A stretch of DNA of 6,732 nucleotides from a virus (lineage: Duplodnaviria; Heunggongvirae; Uroviricota; Caudoviricetes): the IMG/VR virus record IMGVR_UViG_2541047905_000015; one strand, 5' to 3'. Positions 112 to 6,732 of this stretch are shown piece by piece. The first letter of the stretch is position 1. Each line of letters opens with the position of its first letter. The notes below the pieces were generated by a model that searched no databases, was not told the origin of the DNA, and saw only the letters and a list, made by a program, of their open reading frames with translations. A program made the position numbers and the translations under genes.

Positions 112-969
112 TTGACGGACTTCAGGGGAAAAACGAGTATTTTTAGTCATCCTGTTTACCTCTTTCTCAGGAAGTTTAGTCTCCAGGATTCCCGGGGCGG
201 TTCAGCGGGTATCGGTGCCGGTATTGAGAATACGCCAGCAGGAATGCAGAGTCAGGTGCTGCTGGCGGCAGACAGGATTGCGATGATTAATCCTGCGAAT
301 GGCAACACAAAGCCGATGTTTGTTGGTCAGGGCGATCAGATATTCATGAACGACGTGTTCCTGAAACGCCTGACGGCTCCCACCATTACCAGCGGCGGTA
401 ATCCTCCGGCATTTTCCCTGACACCGGACGGAAAACTGACCGCTAAAAATGCAGATATCAGTGGCAGTGTGAATGCGAACGCCGGGACGCTCAACAATGT
501 CACAATTAATGAGAACTGTCAGATTAAGGGGAAACTGTCAGCCAACCAGATTGAAGGCGATATAGTCAAAACAGTGGGTAAGGCTTTTCCGCGGGACTCC
601 CGGGCACCGGAGCGGTGGCCATCAGGGACCATTACCGTCAGGATTTATGACGATCAGCCTTTTGACAGGCAAATTGTTATTCCGGCGGTGGCATTCAGCG
701 GCGCTAAACATGAGCGGGAGAATAACGATATTTATTCGTCATGCCGCCTGATAGTACGGAAAAACGGTGCTGAAATTTATAACCGTACCGCGCTGGATAA
801 TACGCTGATTTACAGTGGTGTTATTGATATGCCAGCTGGTCGCGGCCACATGACGCTGGAGTTTTCGGTGTCAGCATGGCTGGTGAATAACTGGTATCCC
901 ACAGCAAGTATCAGCGATTTGCTGGTTGTGGTGATGAAGAAAGCCACCGCAGGCATCAGTATCAGCTGA
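112..969 (+). CDS. J: Central tail fibre / host specificity protein J, C-terminal receptor-binding region (partial; 5' boundary unresolved, possibly frameshifted)
   Basis: The 285-aa ORF reads like the lambda J C-terminus as I recall it ([54 protein letters not shown] motifs) and sits directly upstream of lom, as in lambda. This frame has a TGA at 67-69, so it cannot continue upstream. Only frame 3 is open from the window start, and it stops at 144-146. The ATG at 112 is just the first in-frame Met. Confidence 0.7.
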
Positions 970-988
970 ATTTTATAACCCCAATACG

Positions 989-1015
989 GGCGCCAGAAAT
1001 GGCGCCTTTTTTATT
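989..1015 (+). terminator. Rho-independent terminator between J and lom
   Basis: Perfect hairpin GGCGCCA (989-995), loop GAAA, TGGCGCC (1000-1006), followed by TTTTTTATT. Confidence 0.6.
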
Positions 1016-1036
1016 GCAGAAAAGCGAGAGGTAATT

Positions 1037-1636
1037 ATGCGTAAAGTTTGTGCAGCCATTTTGTCCGCAGCCATCTGTCTGTCCGTATCCGGTGCGCCTG
1101 CATGGGCGTCTGAACATCAGTCCACACTGAGCGCGGGGTATCTTCATGCCCGTACGAACGCTCCCGGCAGCGATAATCTGAACGGGATTAACGTGAAATA
1201 CCGTTATGAGTTTACGGACGCGCTGGGGCTGATTACGTCCTTCAGTTATGCCAATGCTGAGGATGAGCAAAAAACGCACTACAGCGATACCCGCTGGCAT
1301 GAAGATTCCGTGCGTAACCGCTGGTTCAGCGTGATGGCGGGGCCGTCTGTACGCGTGAATGAATGGTTCAGCGCGTATGCGATGGCGGGTGTGGCTTACA
1401 GCCGTGTGTCGACTTTCTCCGGGGATTATCTCCGCGTAACTGACAACAAGGGGAAAACGCACGATGTGCTGACCGGAAGTGATGACGGTCGCCACAGCAA
1501 CACGTCTCTGGCGTGGGGGGCTGGCGTGCAGTTTAACCCGACCGAATCCGTAACCATTGACCTTGCTTATGAAGGTTCCGGTAGTGGCGACTGGCGAACG
1601 GATGCATTTATTGTTGGTATCGGATACCGTTTCTGA
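1037..1636 (+). CDS. lom: Lom outer-membrane beta-barrel protein (Ail/Lom/PagC family)
   Basis: 199 aa with an N-terminal signal peptide (MRKVCAAILSAAICLSVSGAPAWA). Lambda Lom-like motifs GINVKYRYE, SVMAGP, SAYAMAGVA and the C-terminal AYEGSGSGDWRTD.FIVG.GY.F, ending in Phe as outer-membrane barrels do. Preceded by GAGAGG 7 nt before the ATG. Position between J and stf matches lambda. Confidence 0.92.
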   Translation: MRKVCAAILSAAICLSVSGAPAWASEHQSTLSAGYLHARTNAPGSDNLNGINVKYRYEFTDALGLITSFSYANAEDEQKTHYSDTRWHEDSVRNRWFSVMAGPSVRVNEWFSAYAMAGVAYSRVSTFSGDYLRVTDNKGKTHDVLTGSDDGRHSNTSLAWGAGVQFNPTESVTIDLAYEGSGSGDWRTDAFIVGIGYRF

Positions 1637-1741
1637 CAACAGACGCCGATTTATCTTCTGTAAATATTGTTATGATACGCAGGTTCATCCACCTTATGGG
1701 GTGAACTGCGTTTGAGGAAACGTAAAGTTACACTGTCCTGA

Positions 1742-1775
1742 AGCCCGTGGCGTCACTGCTGCGGGCTTTTTTTAT
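1742..1775 (+). terminator. Rho-independent terminator downstream of lom, just upstream of stf
   Basis: Stem AGCCCG (1742-1747) pairs with CGGGCT (1762-1767) around a 14-nt loop, followed by a run of seven T. Confidence 0.5.
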
Positions 1776-1787
1776 TGGTGGAAAAGT

Positions 1788-4700
1788 ATGACAGTAAAAA
1801 TTTCTGGCGTGCTTAAAGATGGCACAGGAAAACCAGTACAGAACTGCACCATTGTGCTGAAGGCCAGACGAACCAGCAGCACGGTGGTGGTGAACACGGT
1901 GGCCTCTGAAAATCCGGATGAAGCCGGACGTTACAGCATGGATGTTGAGCATGGCCAGTACAGCGTCACCCTGCTGGTTGAAGGTTTTCCGCCTTCACAT
2001 GCCGGGACCATTACCGTCTATGAAGGTTCCAGACCAGGTACGCTGAATGATTTTCTCGGTGCCATGACGGAGGATGATGTCCGACCGGAGGCACTGCGCC
2101 GCTTTGAGCAGATGGTGGAAGAGGTGTCACGTAACGCCTCCGCGGTTGCACAGAATACGGCAGCCGCGAAAAAATCAGCCAGCGATGCTAGTGCATCAGC
2201 CAGCGAGGCGGCAACTCATGCAACCGATGCTGCAGCCTCAGCACGTGCCGCCAGCACGTCAGCCGGACAGGCCGCGTCGTCGGCTCAGTCAGCGTCTTCC
2301 AGCGCAGGAACGGCATCGACAAAGGCCCGTGAAGCAGCAAAAAGTGCTGCTGCTGCAGAGTCATCAAAAAGCGCGGCAGCTACCAGCGCCAGTGCCGCGA
2401 AAACGTCAGAAACGAATGCCGCAGCATCACAAAAATCGGCAGCCACTTCTGCATCCACAGCGACCACGAAGGCGTCAGAAGCTGCCACCTCGGCACGGGG
2501 TGCGGCGGCCTCAAAAGAGGCAGCGAAATCTTCAGAAACGAATGCATCATCAAGTGCCAGTAGTGCAGCTTCCTCGGCAACGGCGGCAGGAAATTCCGCG
2601 AAGGCGGCAAAAACGTCCGAGACGAACGCTAAGTCTTCTGAAACAGCAGCGGGACAGAGCGCCTCAGCTGCGGCAGGTTCAAAAACAGCGGCTGCATTAT
2701 CTGCCAGTGCCGCGTCAACAAGTGCCGGGCAGGCCTCAGCCAGTGCCACCGCCGCCGGAAAATCGGCAGAAAGCGCCGCATCATCCGCTTCAACAGCCAC
2801 AACGAAGGCTGGCAAAGCCACTGAGCAAGCCACTGCAGCAGCGAGGTCTGCTTCTGCAGCAAAAACCTCTGAAACAAATGCAAAGACTTCAGCAGACAAT
2901 GCTGCTTCCTCTAAGGCGGCAGCCGCATCGTCAGCCAGTTCAGCGGCGTCATCGGCATCATCTGCGTCTGCTTCAAAAGATGAGGCGACCAGACAAGCGT
3001 CAGCAGCGAAAGGTAGTGCCACGACAGCAACAACGAAAGCATCAGAGGCGGCAGGCAGTGCGACGGCTGCATCTCAGAGCAAAGTTGCTGCTGAATCCGC
3101 GGCAACGCGCGCCGAGACAGCAGCAAAACGGGCAGAGGATATTGAATCCGCCGTGGCGCTGGAGGATGCGAGCACGACGAAAAAGGGGATAGTACAGCTC
3201 AGCAGTGCAACAAACAGCACCAGTGAAAAGCTGGCGGCAACGCCAAAGGCAGTTAAAACTGTTAAAGATAGTTCAGTTCAAAAAACTGGCGACACAATGG
3301 GAGGGCAGTTAAAAATCAGCACGATAAATGCTCTTCGAATATTCAACCAAGCCTTTGGCCTTATTTTTAGGCGTTCCGAAGATCATCTTCATCTTATTCC
3401 GACTAATGAAGGGGAGGGGGAAAATGGAGACATCGGTTCATTAAGACCATTCTCTATAAACTTAAGATCAGGGTTGGTGTCCATCGGTAATGGACTAAAA
3501 GTTGGTGGTAGTGTTACTGGTAATTTGACCGGAAACGCAGATACTGCGACCAAGATCAAGACAGCACGTAAGATTGGGGGCGTGGCATTTGATGGATCGG
3601 CAGATATCAACTTGCCTGGAGTCAACGCTACCGGTAATCAAAACACTACAGGTAATGCTGCGACCGCCACGAAACTTCAGGCAGCCAGAACGATTAACGG
3701 TGTGTCATTTGATGGTAGTGCAAATATCACATTGACCCCTTCAAATATTGGGGCATTGGCATTAACTGGAGGGACTCTTTCAGGTGGTTTAACTGCTGCT
3801 GGTGAGGTTATTTCAAGGTCAGCAAATGGTCTGCGTATTGCCTATGGCAACTATGGATTCTTTATCCGAAATGATGGATCAAACACATATTTTATGTTGA
3901 CAGATTCGGGTAACAGTCTTGGTACGCACAATAGCTTAAGGCCGTTTATAATTAGTAACCATACTGGCAATGTTACAATTGCAACTAAATTAAACGCGAG
4001 TGGTGGTATCACTGGATCTTTATCGGGTAATGCAAGCACAGCAACCAAATTGCAAACTGCAAGGACAATTAACGGCGTAAAATTTGACGGCTCGGCAAAT
4101 ATTGAAGCGTTTCCGCCAGGTGTTCCGCTGCCGTGGCCATCAGATACACCACCTGCAGGTTATGCAATCATGCAGGGGCAGACGTTTGATAAGGCAGCAT
4201 ATCCGAAACTGGCTATTGCCTATCCTTCAGGTGTTATTCCAGATATGCGCGGCTGGACAATCAAGGGCAAACCCGCCAGTGGCCGGGCCGTATTGTCTCA
4301 GGAACAGGACGGCATAAAATCGCACACCCACAGCGCCAGCGCATCCAGTACGGATTTGGGGACGAAAACCACATCGTCGTTTGATTACGGCACTAAATCC
4401 ACGAATAACACCGGGGCGCATACGCACAGTCTGAGTGGCTCTACGGGGTCTGCCGGTGTTCATACTCATGGTAATGGTATTCGTTGGCCAGGAGGCGGCG
4501 GTTCTGCGTTAGCATTTTATGATGGCGGTGGGTTCACTTATGTCCAGAATTCACAGTATCAAGTAAGCCCGGAGACTTCTTCCTATAGATCGTATTATCA
4601 ACGTATTCAGACACAGTCAGCAGGTGCTCATACCCACTCGCTGTCTGGTACTGCAGCAAGTTCTGGCGCACATGCACATACTGTAGGTATTGGTGCGCAT

Positions 4701-4814
4701 ACGCACTCCGTTGCGATTGGTTCACATGGACACACCATCACCGTTAACGCTGCGGGTAACGCGGAAAACACCGTCAAAAACATCGCATTTAACTATATTG
4801 TGAGGCTTGCATAA
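1788..4814 (+). CDS. stf: Side tail fibre protein, mosaic: lambda Stf-like N-terminus, Ala/Ser-rich shaft, tail-fibre repeat module, collar plus His-rich tip
   Basis: 1008 aa. The N-terminus ([22 protein letters not shown]...[14 protein letters not shown]) and the C-terminus ([62 protein letters not shown] ... [31 protein letters not shown]) match lambda Stf as I remember it. Its TAA stop overlaps the tfa start as TAATG (4812-4816). Confidence 0.93.
2130..3140 (+). repeat. Low-complexity Ala/Ser/Thr-rich imperfect tandem repeat region encoding the stf shaft
   Basis: About 330 codons dominated by GCN, TCN and ACN. The motif AAK(T/S)SETNA recurs at nt ~2401, ~2527, ~2611 and ~2861. This region also produces long spurious ORFs in other frames and on the opposite strand. 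Confidence 0.7.
3529..4107 (+). repeat. Three copies of a ~28-aa phage tail-fibre repeat inside stf
   Basis: [28 protein letters not shown] (nt ~3529-3614), [28 protein letters not shown] (~3650-3733) and [28 protein letters not shown] (~4027-4107). They resemble the Pfam 'phage tail fibre repeat' family (Phage_fiber_2, from memory). The surrounding stretch 3250-4080 looks more AT-rich than the rest of stf. Confidence 0.6.
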
Positions 4815-5398
4815 TGGCATTCAGAATGAGTGAACAAGCACGGACCATAAAAATTTATAATCTGCTGGCCGGAACTAATGAATTTATTGGTGAAGGTGAC
4901 GCATATATTCCGCCTCATACAGGTCTGCCAGCAAACAGTACCGATATTGCACCACCAGATATTCCTGCTGGCTTTGTGGCTGTTTTCAACAGTGATGAGG
5001 CATCGTGGCATCTCGTTGAAGACCATCGGGGGAAAACGGTTTATGACGTAGCGTCAGGGGACGAGTTATTTATTTCTGAACTCGGTCCGTTACCGGAAAA
5101 TGTTACCTGGTTATCGCCGGAAGGGGAGTTTCAGAAGTGGAACGGCACAGCCTGGGTGAAGGATACGGAAGCAGAAAAACTGTTCCGGATCCGGGAGGCG
5201 GAAGAAACAAAAAACAACCTGATGCAGGTAGCCAGTGAGCATATTGCGCCGCTTCAGGATGCTGCAGATCTGGAAATTGCAACGGAGGAAGAAACCTCAT
5301 TGCTGGAAGCCTGGAAAAAGTATCGGGTGTTGCTGAACCGTGTTGATACATCAACTGCACCTGATATTGAGTGGCCTACGAACCCTGTCAGGGAGTAA
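4814..5398 (+). CDS. tfa: Tail fibre assembly protein (chaperone for Stf), lambda Tfa-like
   Basis: 194 aa, same length as lambda Tfa and closely matching it as I recall it ([82 protein letters not shown]...). Start is translationally coupled to the stf stop. Confidence 0.93.
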
Positions 5399-5447
5399 TC
5401 ATTGGGATTATGCCGCAGCACGTCTTAAGCAAGAACGTGCTGCGGTT
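5233..5447 (+). repeat. Direct repeat copy 1: tfa 3' end plus ~50 bp downstream
   Basis: Aligns by eye with 6282-6497 at an offset of ~1050 bp, roughly 85-90% identical. It covers the last ~54 codons of tfa, the stop, and the downstream TAATCATTGGGATTATGCCGCAG...ACGTGCTGCGGTT. Confidence 0.8.
5413..5445. terminator. Hairpin between the convergent tfa and methyltransferase genes (candidate bidirectional terminator)
   Basis: Perfect 11-bp stem CCGCAGCACGT (5413-5423) / ACGTGCTGCGG (5435-5445) with an 11-nt loop. A T-run (5456-5461) follows on the + strand. No U-tract on the reverse strand, so termination for the methyltransferase would need to be U-tract independent. Confidence 0.4.
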
Positions 5448-5452
5448 GGATG

Positions 5453-6121
5453 CTATTTTTTCCCTGAAGCGGAAAACATTACTACAGTACCTTGAACCTT
5501 GGTTTTAACATTCTCGAAATGCTCTGAGAGTATATGTGTTAAGCCTTCTTCGGAATCTTTTGTGTTTGAAAAGATGCCTTTCTGATTGTAAATGCGCATC
5601 AGTTTTTGACCGAAGCTATTGTGCACAACTCCATCGCCAAGAATTGTGGCTCCGTATAGAGTTCCATCGTCAGTTAAGGCCTGCGCCGCATTGCGTATTA
5701 CACAGCTTTTTGTAGATATATTTCCAGGCAGGCAGTGAAGAAGGTAAAACATGGAAATGGAATCAAATTGACCATGTAACGCCGCGGGATAAGGTTCAAA
5801 AACATCATGGCTAATTTTATGTTTAATTTTTGATTCCCCAGCCCTTGTAGATGCCGCGTTCAGGCTAGCTTCGTTCAAATCCATTAAAGATATCAGACTA
5901 CTCTCAGGTACGTGAGTAAGGTAAAACCCAGTTCCAACACCAATATCCAGATGGTTGTTACCTACATGTTCCAGAAAGTGTGGAAGAAGGTGTTCCTTTG
6001 TAGGACATCCCCATGCAAGCCGATTTGATACTCCCAAAACCCACCAGTCATAAAGCTTTAGGGTAAGTGGTGTGTAAATTTTAGCCCCATCATCTGTGTT
6101 TTTTTTCATTGATTTCACCAT
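5453..6121 (-). CDS. Class I SAM-dependent methyltransferase of unknown substrate (moron), resembling YbcY of the DLP12 prophage
   Basis: 222-aa reverse-strand ORF with a Rossmann-fold SAM-binding motif I (HLDIGVGTGFYL), an acidic motif II (LMDLNE), and FDSISMFYLLHCLP. No DPPY/NPPY or PC-type DNA-methyltransferase motifs. The likely true start is the second Met (nt 6109, giving 218 aa), preceded by GGTGA. Composition looks clearly more AT-rich than the tail genes. Convergent with tfa. Confidence 0.8.
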   Translation of the reverse strand: MVKSMKKNTDDGAKIYTPLTLKLYDWWVLGVSNRLAWGCPTKEHLLPHFLEHVGNNHLDIGVGTGFYLTHVPESSLISLMDLNEASLNAASTRAGESKIKHKISHDVFEPYPAALHGQFDSISMFYLLHCLPGNISTKSCVIRNAAQALTDDGTLYGATILGDGVVHNSFGQKLMRIYNQKGIFSNTKDSEEGLTHILSEHFENVKTKVQGTVVMFSASGKK

Positions 6122-6150
6122 GTTATAGTTTTATTTGTGAATTAAATCAA
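6122..6150 (-). promoter_or_regulatory. Putative sigma70 promoter for the methyltransferase moron
   Basis: On the reverse strand: -35 TTGATT (complement of 6145-6150), 17-bp spacer, -10 TATAAC (complement of 6122-6127), then GGTGA and the ATG at 6109. Near-consensus spacing and hexamers; sequence-only prediction. Confidence 0.4.
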
Positions 6151-6177
6151 TTATGGCGATGAATTACAAGGGGTTAA

Positions 6178-6447
6178 ATGCTGCCGCAGCATAGCGATAT
6201 TGAAATAGCCTGGTATGCTTCGATACAGCAGGAGCCGAATGGCTGGAAGACCGTCACCACACAGTTCTACATCCAGGAATTCAGTGAGTATATTGCGCCA
6301 CTGCAGGATGCTGTAGATCTGGAAATCGCAACGGAGGAAGAAAGATCGTTGCTGGAGGCATGGAATAAATATCGGGTATTGTTGAATCGTGTTGATACAT
6401 CAACTGCACCTGATATTGAGTGGCCTGCAAATCCTGTCAGGGAGTAA
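6178..6447 (+). CDS. Truncated/chimeric tail fibre assembly protein fragment: novel 37-aa N-terminus fused to the Tfa C-terminal ~52 aa (resembles tfaX)
   Basis: 89-aa ORF with AAGGGG 4 nt upstream of the ATG. Residues ~38-89 are near-identical to the Tfa C-terminus; the N-terminus ([37 protein letters not shown]) is unrelated to Tfa. It may be a translated remnant or a pseudogene. Confidence 0.6.
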
Positions 6448-6497
6448 TCATTGGGATTATGCCGCAGATACGTCGTATGCAGGAACGTGCTGCGGTT
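6282..6497 (+). repeat. Direct repeat copy 2: 3' end of the tfa-like fragment plus ~50 bp downstream
   Basis: Same orientation as copy 1. Encodes ...[51 protein letters not shown], against ...[51 protein letters not shown] in tfa. Confidence 0.8.
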
Positions 6498-6561
6498 AGT
6501 TTGTGAGCTTTCGATAGTGGTTGTTATTTTTGCCCTTATTTGTTCCGGAGGCCATGGTTCA

Positions 6562-6732
6562 ATGGTCCGTCTGCCCCCTGTGGTGATGTCAGCAAAATCA
6601 GCCACTGCGCGAACCACAATAGCCCGGGAAGATGCTGAAGATCACCAGGTAAAGCTGTCAGCGCAGAAACTGGAAGAACTGCTCGCATCAATGGTTAAGG
6701 ATGAGGTTGATCGCAATGATGGGATTTATTGA
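6562..6732 (+). CDS. Small hypothetical protein (56 aa from ATG 6562; the ORF is open from 6451 if an upstream TTG or GTG is used)
   Basis: ORF ends with TGA exactly at the window edge. GGAGG at 6547-6551 lies 10 nt upstream of ATG 6562. Product MVRLPPVVMSAKSATARTTIAREDAEDHQVKLSAQKLEELLASMVKDEVDRNDGIY is charged and probably helical; I recognise no family. Confidence 0.35.
   Translation: MVRLPPVVMSAKSATARTTIAREDAEDHQVKLSAQKLEELLASMVKDEVDRNDGIY

Follow-up and report, generated by a model that had tools for sequence, protein, structure and literature searches.

The window, meaning the whole 6,732-nucleotide stretch of viral DNA analysed here, carries the genes J, lom, stf and tfa in that order, as read from the ORF map and Pfam matches; the order is identical in lambda and in E. 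coli VR50. Its left end (1–204, no strand assigned) is the end of an IS3-family insertion sequence, which adjoins the 3′ part of J. Positions 1–225 share 97–100% identity with transposase copies of the IS3 family (IS1203-like) from many E. coli genomes, all J matches start at nucleotide 205, and J is interrupted by the element in the present copy. The 3′ part of J (205–969; this and all features below lie on the plus strand) encodes the receptor-binding C-terminus of the tail-tip protein, matches PF12421 (Ig_GpJ_C) and PF09327 (Phage_Tail_Tip) and is annotated gpJ in VR50. It is followed by lom (1037–1636; PF06316, E = 1.3e-126), which encodes an Ail/Lom outer-membrane β-barrel protein, and by the side tail fibre gene stf (1788–4814), an intact ORF of 1008 residues annotated WP_000216487.1 in VR50. 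The start of tfa (4814–5398; PF02413, E = 1.9e-44), which encodes a 194-residue tail fibre assembly chaperone and is 92.5% identical in nucleotides to lambda tfa, overlaps the stf stop. The tape-measure gene is frameshifted in VR50; with this lesion and the insertion in J, the fibre may not be built into infectious particles in these hosts.

In lambda, Stf forms a trimer on virions and recognises OmpC as host receptor. The present product matches 55 PHROG tail-fibre families and has the traits of a lambda-type Stf: a PF08400 N-terminus, a position after J and lom and before tfa, and a gp37-type C-terminus. Ur-lambda Stf, rebuilt by joining orf-401 and orf-314 of NC_001416, has 774 residues, the length also stated in the literature (PMC7291167). 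The present protein is thus 234 residues longer, close to the excess of about 230 in the original prediction, which had described a three-part gene with an inserted AT-rich block acquired from another phage lineage.

The N-terminal tail-attachment domain (residues 1–134; 1788–2189) is indeed lambda-like, matching PF08400 with 234 bits against a cut-off of 26.6 (E = 5.6e-70). The N-terminal chain of lambda Stf (PDB 9e7m/9mgh) matches residues 1–94 (E = 3.6e-47), and residues 1–114 are 85% identical to lambda. The shaft that follows (residues 115–490; 2130–3257) consists of 37% Ala, 23% Ser and 11% Thr, with dispersed AAK(T/S)SETNA motifs and six diverged copies of a 33-nt motif; no Pfam family was found for it. 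It is 82% identical to the lambda shaft and 91–94% identical to those of other lambdoid Stf proteins. By protein alignment, a 105-residue stretch within it (residues 304–408; 2697–3011) is absent from lambda Stf and present in the other lambdoid relatives, and lambda DNA homology skips from position 2695 to 3001. An antisense ORF in the Ala-rich shaft can displace the 5′ half of stf in gene-caller output, a pitfall for reading such a locus from its letters.

The shaft ends in a junction motif (residues 467–490; 3186–3257) terminating in LAATPKAVK. The motif is conserved in all relatives, and homology stops right after it. It aligns with Mu S in 5yvq; Mu S (5yvq, 9ki1) and the present Stf share a joint of the form SSAT(N/D)S(T/P)SExLAAT(P/A)KAVK. 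In PhiR26_1 the motif is doubled, with TPKAVK at residues 490 and 534. Between this motif and a second one conserved across all relatives, PWPSD, lies an exchangeable AT-rich cassette (residues 491–781; 3258–4130) that shares no DNA homology with lambda, 204576, PhiR26_1 or Turner. The AT-rich block had been predicted at about 3250–4080; the homology breakpoints place it at 3258–4130, with a GC content of 0.434. An Rfam scan found nothing within it.

Three 28-residue repeats, as predicted, could be located in the cassette by internal alignment, at residues 582–609 (3531–3614), 622–649 (3651–3734) and 747–774 (4026–4109). They have 19–23 of 28 residues in common, with the consensus GNAxTATKLxxARxIxGVxFDGSxNI and a linker LPGVNxxGNQxTxGNA. 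Only 62% of their nucleotide columns are invariant and the units are dispersed and diverged, and we therefore reject a recent internal duplication; Tandem Repeats Finder reported no meaningful tandem array in stf. No Pfam family was found for the repeats, and a PDB search yielded no convincing solved homologue, the sole match being the stalk of phage L Dec (E = 0.19). The repeat unit shows about 78% identity between the E. coli prophage and a Prochlorococcus cyanophage.

Interleaved with the repeats are two knobs, each with an SLRPF motif: knob 1 (residues 513–572; 3324–3503; SLRPF at 551–555) and knob 2 (residues 679–737; 3822–3998; SLRPF at 716–720). Units of about 105 residues around them (501–605 and 667–770) are 42% identical by Smith-Waterman alignment, with a score 23.8 standard deviations above shuffled sequences that none of 500 shuffles reached, bearing out the relatedness first proposed for the two SLRPF segments; a BLASTP self-comparison of the cassette gave no matches. 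Knob 2 matches PF21446 (Gp34_trimer) with 94.6 bits over residues 620–722 against a cut-off of 27, and the right half of the cassette alone still scores 92.7 bits. Knob 1 falls under the cut-off (14.5 bits, E = 0.053), but its alignment with knob 2 supports it as a homologue and diverged copy of that knob. Knob 2 is assigned to the β-prism type of T4 gp34 P4 and Mu S by PF21446 and by PDB matches: residues 268–350 of Mu S (5yvq) match Stf residues 670–751 (E = 1e-25), and the core of T4 gp34 P4 (9x3r residues 997–1121; 4uxe, 5nxf, 5nxh) aligns with knob 2 with E of about 1e-17. In gp34, the stretch at about 1040–1100 is the P4 β-prism between triple β-helix segments, and P3 and P4 are described as structural parts of the shaft in the proximal half-fibre (PMC5537660). 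Five strands per knob are predicted in a low-confidence AF2 monomer model (pLDDT 62.7, pTM 0.33), as in the description of gp34 P3/P4 (PMC5537660). Unlike T4 gp34, the present protein is a siphovirus side fibre rather than a myovirus proximal half-fibre, and the domain occurs twice, interleaved with 28-residue repeats that have no convincing alignment with gp34.

The right junction at PWPSD opens the collar and proximal His-box needle (4131–4460), with Collar PF07484 at residues 778–825; PF03335 is also matched in the C-terminal part. The T4 gp37 tip (2xgf) matches residues 743–1008 (E = 1.2e-79). Collar and proximal needle are 86–92% identical to those of the relatives and 86–88% to lambda, so the expectation of a lambda-like end holds for these elements; it fails for the patch that follows between the His boxes (residues 892–951; 4461–4640). 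This patch is 98% identical to phage 204576 and only 16–23% identical to lambda, PhiR26_1 and Turner. Residues 893–943 are unrelated to the lambda tip patch (16%), and no DNA homology to lambda was found at 4464–4634. In the 2xgf alignment the patch is the counterpart of the divergent stretch of T4 gp37, and the distal tip is the part to which receptor specificity has been mapped in the gp37/Stf family (PMC9659904, PMC7291167); by analogy and from its divergence pattern, it is probably the receptor-binding head. The C-terminal His-box needle strands (4641–4814) are again conserved, at 88–100% identity to all relatives, and match T4 gp37.

Base composition sets the cassette apart, in part for a trivial reason. 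A sliding profile confirms the AT-rich block, with GC of 0.385–0.50 over about 3200–4100, and the cassette lies 0.151 below the shaft (0.434 against 0.585). Of this step, 57% comes from codon position 2, where the shaft has a GC of 0.77 and the cassette 0.51. Because the shaft is rich in Ala, Ser and Thr, this share of the step is not evidence of foreign origin; the shaft is GC-rich, as had been noted, but mainly as an amino-acid effect, its GC3 being only 0.447. That a GC step can largely reflect amino-acid content at codon position 2 is a pitfall for any reading from sequence alone. A true synonymous deficit persists once the amino-acid effect is removed, and to that extent the proposed composition break stands. 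Cassette GC3 is 0.340, the lowest of all segments, against 0.464 in the rest of stf (chi-square p = 4e-4), and lies 6 SD under the expectation from per-amino-acid codon use of the neighbouring genes. GC3 of the N-terminus, J and lom is 0.55–0.59, and that of the shaft is already lower. The alternative cassettes of relatives also have lowered GC3 (0.375–0.46), and low GC3 is therefore partly general to this class of module rather than the mark of one recent import.

To either side of the cassette, DNA homology is lost and regained abruptly. Phages 204576, PhiR26_1 and Turner align at about 88% from 1761 to 3256/3257, then not at all, and restart exactly at 4131; lambda homology breaks at 3256 and resumes at 4107. 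Each of these four lambdoid comparators carries a different cassette between the junctions, of 144 residues in lambda and about 270–420 in other relatives. Other lambdoid Stf proteins (those of 204576, Turner, PhiR26_1, mEp332 and ev099, and of two lambdoid prophage stf genes, L006 and L007) resemble the present one in the long shaft, both junction motifs and the general cassette vocabulary, but in each the cassette, or its right half, is another one. Amino-acid identity by segment is 82–94% in the N-terminus and shaft, 23–34% in the cassette, 86–92% in the collar and needle, 16–98% in the tip and 88–100% at the C-terminal end.

The cassette has a further breakpoint within it. L006 matches the window with zero mismatches over 3156–3661 and dense mismatches from 3662; L007 does so over 3213–3670, with dense mismatches from 3671. 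These two genes, whose architectures were read from two encoding contigs, are identical to the present one (100%) in the left half of the cassette and have different C-terminal halves from inside repeat 2 onwards; the change falls in the first 11–20 nt of that repeat. Phage 204576 is 75–89% identical at 4131–4325 and then differs at 5 positions in 2407 nt (4326–6732), sharing tip and tfa at 99.8% nucleotide identity. Zero-mismatch tracts of 458–506 nt beside tracts of 75–90% identity in the same pairwise comparison argue for recombination and not for divergence in place. Breakpoints coincide with short conserved motifs, at the TPKAVK joint (about 3156–3257), the start of repeat 2 (3662–3671), PWPSD (4131), within the collar and needle (about 4326) and at the His boxes round the tip. 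Nearest relatives change from one segment to the next, and identity changes in steps. Judged by these alignments, stf comprises at least six tracts that differ in their nearest relatives, the cassette itself being composite, in place of the three parts first described. Uniform composition and a single set of closest relatives throughout, which would have spoken against a mosaic, are contradicted by both the GC3 step and the differing relatives.

We considered whether the variation could arise from an invertible segment of the Cin/Gin/Pin/Min type and rejected this: the window ORFs include no serine invertase or resolvase by ORF list and Pfam, and positions 4000–6732 contain no inverted repeats of 20 nt or more. 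A second tfa fragment in the window is a direct repeat. By contrast, a DNA invertase follows tfa in several of the lambdoid relatives, namely L006, L007 and Turner.

The allele itself is common, being near-identical in about 420–470 complete E. coli genomes. In 430 E. coli records the cassette reaches 99% identity or more, followed by partial matches of 80–90%. Of 5426 E. coli genomes, 3793 contain the left flank (5681 places) and 423 the present cassette, and we therefore regard the cassette as one allele at a common polymorphic site. Donors were sought in phage DNA (near and distant search modes), by tblastn, in E. coli genomes and in a 5.8-billion-protein set, for the last of which the matches listed were all of 510 residues or fewer, many of them fragments, so that full-length architectures are not visible there. 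Among 50,697 phage records, 5,426 E. coli genomes and the protein set, no near-identical cassette was found outside this allele. Phages of unrelated morphology share modules with the present gene: P1/P7, Mu, P2, T4-like and 9g-like phages and Prochlorococcus phage P-TIM68. The best non-self relatives in protein are S/Sv′ fibres of P1/P7 type, at 65–78% identity; the best non-self DNA matches reach 82–86% over about 200 nt. Knob and repeats are shared with P7 Sv′, RCS47 Sc and CMS-2020a (P1/P7/p15B-type, phage-plasmids) at 65–78% in protein and 72–76% in DNA; the Mu/P1/P7 fibres differ in belonging to contractile-tail phages and in their N-termini and receptor-binding ends, and many lie in invertible segments. 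At such identities the P1/P7/Mu-type fibres cannot be named as donors, and we can only infer the direction and donors of the exchanges. The proposed horizontal origin of the middle block thus holds in that its history differs from that of its flanks, by the loss and return of homology and by low GC3; protein and DNA searches name no donor lineage.

We consider it probable (roughly 85%) that stf encodes a lambda-type E. coli prophage side fibre, assembled as a patchwork by repeated homologous recombination at short motifs that bracket its modules. The lambda-type domain would dock on the tail tip, and the Ala/Ser/Thr shaft leads to the conserved joint at residues 467–490. Beyond it, the exchangeable cassette alternates two β-prism knobs with three fibrous repeats, and PWPSD opens onto the collar, the T4 gp37/lambda-type His-box needle and the hypervariable, probably receptor-binding tip; the downstream Tfa chaperone would help to fold this end of the fibre. 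The fibre is presumably trimeric, with the cassette setting its length and the tip, rather than the cassette, binding the receptor. Recombination at the TPKAVK joint, the start of repeat 2, PWPSD, the collar/needle and the His boxes would swap modules. In place of the 144-residue PLDSPALTG…GAGENS module of lambda, this 284-residue knob/repeat cassette would add about 140 residues of rigid spacer, which may alter fibre length and receptor reach.

Compatible with the patchwork reading, and a refinement of it, is the view that this locus normally holds a knob-repeat cassette and that the short lambda module is the exception, so that the "extra" length reflects lambda's own history; we give this somewhat less than an even chance. 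Knobs of the Gp34 type and the GNAxTATKL repeat occur at the site in 204576, Turner, PhiR30_1, mEp332 and others, which also have the 105-residue shaft stretch; the knob and repeat in the cassettes of 204576 and Turner are 44–48% identical to the present ones. The lambda cassette has neither knob nor repeat, and its GC3 is 0.50. On this view, too, the allele here is recombinant.

A single recent import, with the entire AT-rich block inserted into a lambda-like stf as one foreign module that came from a low-GC phage lineage, accords with the lowest GC3 of any segment and with homologues of the modules in P1/P7, Mu and T4-like phages and even in a cyanophage. Lambda and every relative, however, already carry a cassette at this site, and the event was therefore a replacement, not an insertion. 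Nor does the block account for the extra length: about 105 of the 234 residues lie in the shaft and about 140 in the cassette, with needle and tip 11 residues shorter. No near-identical donor emerged from the records searched, and the left half is that of L006 and L007, whose right halves differ. The internal breakpoint at repeat 2 therefore refutes an import in one piece, a reading that we hold to be quite improbable.

β-prism and knob domains of some other phage fibres bind sugars, and the knobs delivered by the 28-residue unit could equip the side fibre with a second binding specificity. That the cassette has a second, independent binding activity, for instance towards a surface glycan, making the fibre bivalent, seems to us very improbable. 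The site is polymorphic in E. coli, as expected under host-range selection, but gp34 P3/P4 are described as structural (PMC5537660), gp37/Stf receptor specificity lies at the distal tip (PMC9659904, PMC7291167), and the cassette is 99–100% conserved in 430 records. Least probable of all is that no horizontal transfer took place, the composition step being a by-product of an Ala/Ser/Thr shaft beside a Gly/Asn/Ile/Thr cassette and the cassette having diverged in place under diversifying selection: the codon-position-2 share of the step, the already low shaft GC3 and the homology in kind of the relatives' cassettes fit this, but GC3 lies 6 SD under expectation, nucleotide identity of about 88% drops below detection over a few bases at each junction rather than gradually, zero-mismatch tracts adjoin diverged ones in the same pair, and the step-like profiles have incongruent nearest relatives from segment to segment.

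In T-even phages, tail fibres recombine at His boxes. The patchwork described here is a further example of long-known tail-fibre mosaicism (Montag 1989; Haggård-Ljungquist 1992; Sandmeier 1992, 1994, as cited in PMC3945230), in an allele that hundreds of E. coli genomes already contain under a generic annotation. As in the classic cases, nearest relatives differ by segment, breakpoints fall at short conserved motifs, and modules are common to unrelated temperate and virulent phages; there is no difference in kind, only one more allele. Recombination of lambda with resident prophages via stf/tfa homology has been demonstrated by experiment, and ancient stf exchange between unrelated phages has been termed well documented (PMC3945230). 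We find it unlikely that the 28-residue unit with its linker is a near-universal recombination adaptor, its DNA-level conservation permitting swaps of knobs and receptor ends between the fibres of unrelated phages.

For basic biology the locus carries little weight, as one more clear case of modular exchange in tail fibres. Its natural breakpoints, which lie behind LAATPKAVK, where a GNAxTATKL repeat starts, ahead of PWPSD and round the His-box tip, mark swap-tolerant positions useful in designing chimeric Stf for retargeted lambda-based delivery particles, which have already been built (PMC11338833). The fusion-point names MDETNR and GAGENS for engineered lambda Stf chimeras were not found in that paper and are not relied on here.

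The window comes from a lambda-type E. coli prophage and covers the end that encodes its tail fibres. By ORF map and Pfam search it holds the 3′ part of J (205–969), lom (1037–1636), the side tail fibre gene stf (1788–4814, 1008 aa), tfa (4814–5398), a class I SAM methyltransferase gene on the minus strand (5453–6121) and an 89-aa tfa fragment (6178–6447). Of 5426 complete E. coli genomes, 469 carry chromosomal prophages that match positions 205–6732, about 97% of the window, at 99.5–99.9% identity. In E. coli VR50, the prophage abuts a partial ompW (26832–26957), beside yciE and the trp operon, a position that suggests an integration site in ompW; stf is annotated there only as 'prophage tail fiber N-terminal domain-containing protein'. 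Both stf and tfa are intact in the window copy. The tail-tip gene J is interrupted or truncated, since one end of an IS3-family (IS1203-like) element occupies positions 1–204 (up to ~225) and only from 205 onward does the sequence match J; the window-copy prophage is probably defective. In VR50, J is intact and the tape-measure gene is frameshifted (12019–14592).

All the features that the original prediction listed for stf were found. The predicted excess of ~230 aa over lambda Stf came to 234 aa, measured against Ur-lambda Stf, which is 774 aa once orf-401 and orf-314 of NC_001416 are fused over the known frameshift; the same length is given in PMC7291167. The lambda-like N-terminus comprises PF08400 at aa 1–134, and the lambda Stf N-terminal chain of PDB 9e7m matches aa 1–94. 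A shaft follows at aa 115–490, with 37% Ala, 23% Ser and 11% Thr. Sliding GC falls from 0.55–0.64 at 2100–3200 to 0.385–0.50 at 3200–4100, and returns to ~0.54 thereafter. Within this AT-rich block lie three 28-aa repeats (aa 582–609, 622–649 and 747–774), identical at 19–23 of 28 residues, and two SLRPF segments, each inside a unit of ~105 aa; the two units are 42% identical, with an alignment score 23.8 SD above 500 shuffles. The collar, PF07484, is succeeded by a needle and tip of the T4 gp37 His-box type (2xgf, E 1.2e-79).

The edges of the block were located by blastn of the window against lambda and three lambdoid phages (204576, PhiR26_1 and Turner). The latter three match at ~88% from 1761 to 3256/3257, show no match beyond this point, and restart exactly at 4131. 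Lambda matches at 1763–2695 and 3001–3256 and restarts at 4107. The left edge falls immediately after the motif [24 protein letters not shown] (aa 467–490), and the right edge is at PWPSD, where the collar starts. The number of residues between the two junction motifs is 284 in the window, 144 in lambda and ~270–420 in the other relatives. Because lambda and the relatives each carry sequence between the same two motifs, the block (3258–4130, aa 491–781) is an exchangeable cassette; the insertion originally proposed gives way to replacement at an already occupied site. In PhiR26_1 stf, the motif …[12 protein letters not shown](S/T)LAATPKAVK has two tandem copies within aa 467–534, with a spacing of 44 aa, a doubling that looks like the scar of an unequal exchange at the motif.

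The block explains about 60% of the extra length, and the rest lies elsewhere: relative to lambda, the balance is +105 aa in the shaft (aa 304–408), +140 aa in the cassette and −11 aa in the needle and tip. The shaft stretch is absent in lambda and present in the other relatives. A 33-nt motif that encodes AAK(T/S)SETNA recurs in six diverged copies scattered across the shaft at 2394–2888. As one copy falls inside the stretch missing from lambda (2697–3011), unequal exchange between such motifs may explain the difference in shaft length.

The cassette, too, is a composite. Fragments retrieved by a protein search match its left half and diverge after it; they come from two contigs (L006 and L007) that carry full-length lambdoid stf genes with miscalled 5′ halves. 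Neither contig has a mismatch to the window over 3156–3661 (L006) or 3213–3670 (L007). Dense mismatches begin at 3662 and 3671, respectively, within the first 11–20 nt of repeat 2 (3651–3734), and past this breakpoint the two contigs encode different domains. At the distal end, 204576 is only 75–89% identical to the window over 4131–4325, and from there to the window end, tfa included, 5 of 2407 positions differ. The tip patch (aa 893–943) is 98% identical to 204576 and 16–23% identical to lambda, PhiR26_1 and Turner. Instead of the three parts first described, stf comprises at least six tracts with different nearest relatives, and the horizontal exchange proposed for the middle block did occur, but as several events rather than one.

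The Ala-rich shaft also contains a 245-aa antisense ORF on the minus strand (2285–3022), which corresponds to lambda orf206b and most likely arises from the periodicity of GCN codons. For both L006 and L007, the gene callers picked this ORF and placed the stf start at the internal Met504, which accounts for apparently truncated tail-fibre proteins in databases.

Base composition had been read as a sign of exchange, and this holds in part. GC at codon positions 1, 2 and 3 is 0.54, 0.77 and 0.447 in the shaft and 0.45, 0.51 and 0.340 in the cassette. Position 2 contributes 57% of the overall step of 0.151, owing to the richness of the shaft in Ala (GCN), Ser and Thr (ACN) codons; much of the step is therefore amino-acid composition, and the shaft, although GC-rich overall, is not so at silent sites. 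The synonymous deficit is nevertheless genuine: cassette GC3 is 0.340 against 0.464 in the rest of stf (p = 4e-4), and lies 6 SD under what the codon use for each amino acid in J, lom, tfa and the remainder of stf would predict. Low GC3 is partly a trait of the module class, since the alternative cassettes of related phages are also lowered (0.375–0.46), though that of lambda is not (0.50); the window allele is the extreme case.

Each SLRPF segment lies in a knob, at 3324–3503 (knob 1, aa 513–572) and 3822–3998 (knob 2, aa 679–737). Knob 2 matches PF21446 (94.6 bits), residues 268–350 of Mu tail fibre S (E 1e-25) and T4 gp34 at ~1040–1100 (E ~1e-17). In the crystal structure, this gp34 stretch is the P4 beta-prism, a five-stranded sheet amid triple beta-helix segments (PMC5537660). 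Knob 1 scores 14.5 bits against PF21446, under the Pfam threshold, and judged by its alignment to knob 2 is clearly homologous to it. An AlphaFold monomer of the cassette gives five strands per knob, weak support at a pLDDT of 62.7, a low confidence expected for an obligate trimer. The 28-aa repeats matched no Pfam family, and against solved structures gave no convincing match, only the C-terminal stalk of phage L Dec (E 0.19), itself modelled as a trimeric beta-helix. Window 3506–3717, spanning two repeats and an LPGVNxxGNQxTxGNA linker, resembles a fibre of the Prochlorococcus phage P-TIM68, a marine cyanophage (1501–1712; …[49 protein letters not shown]…) at ~78% protein and ~69% DNA identity, and related repeats occur in a Roseobacter phage and ocean metagenome proteins. 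The repeats are very widely conserved.

A search at ≥99% identity found the cassette in 430 E. coli records (423 genomes at ≥80% coverage), essentially always in the same gene. The left flank occurs at 5681 places in 3793 genomes, and the cassette is a minority allele, at ~7–8% of places, of a very common polymorphic locus. The next-best DNA matches are ~200-nt pieces of P1-like plasmids at 82–86%. Among 50,697 phage records, none exceeded 80% protein identity; the best were P1/P7-type fibres: CMS-2020a reaches 65% identity across 90% of the query, and P7 Sv′ and RCS47 Sc each reach 70% across 68%. These searches of phage records and E. coli genomes name no donor.

The best-supported account of the mosaic is homologous recombination guided by short conserved motifs that flank variable modules; exchange would take place at the TPKAVK joint, the GNAxTATKL repeats, PWPSD and the His boxes. 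Tail-fibre evolution is classically pictured in this way, and stf is one more case of a well-known kind of tail-fibre gene. Ancient stf exchange among unrelated phages has been called 'well documented' (PMC3945230, citing Montag 1989, Haggård-Ljungquist 1992 and Sandmeier 1992/1994), and in experiments reported there lambda recombines with Rac and Qin via stf/tfa homology. We infer that the cassette acts as a rigid spacer that lengthens the fibre. By analogy with the gp37/Stf family (PMC7291167, PMC9659904), the distal tip, folded together with Tfa, would determine receptor specificity.

Downstream of stf, two direct copies of the tfa 3′ end are present (5222–5447 and 6271–6497, ~88–89% identity, 1049 nt apart). 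The copies bracket the minus-strand methyltransferase gene, and the second lies in the 89-aa tfa fragment. Neither an invertase gene nor inverted repeats are present. Rfam RF02111 'IS009' matches 5157–5355 (+) within the 3′ part of tfa, at 225 bits against a gathering score of 117, and overlaps the repeated segment. Phage PhiR26_1 is annotated with the same tfa-repeat layout, including a 'YbcY'-like protein.
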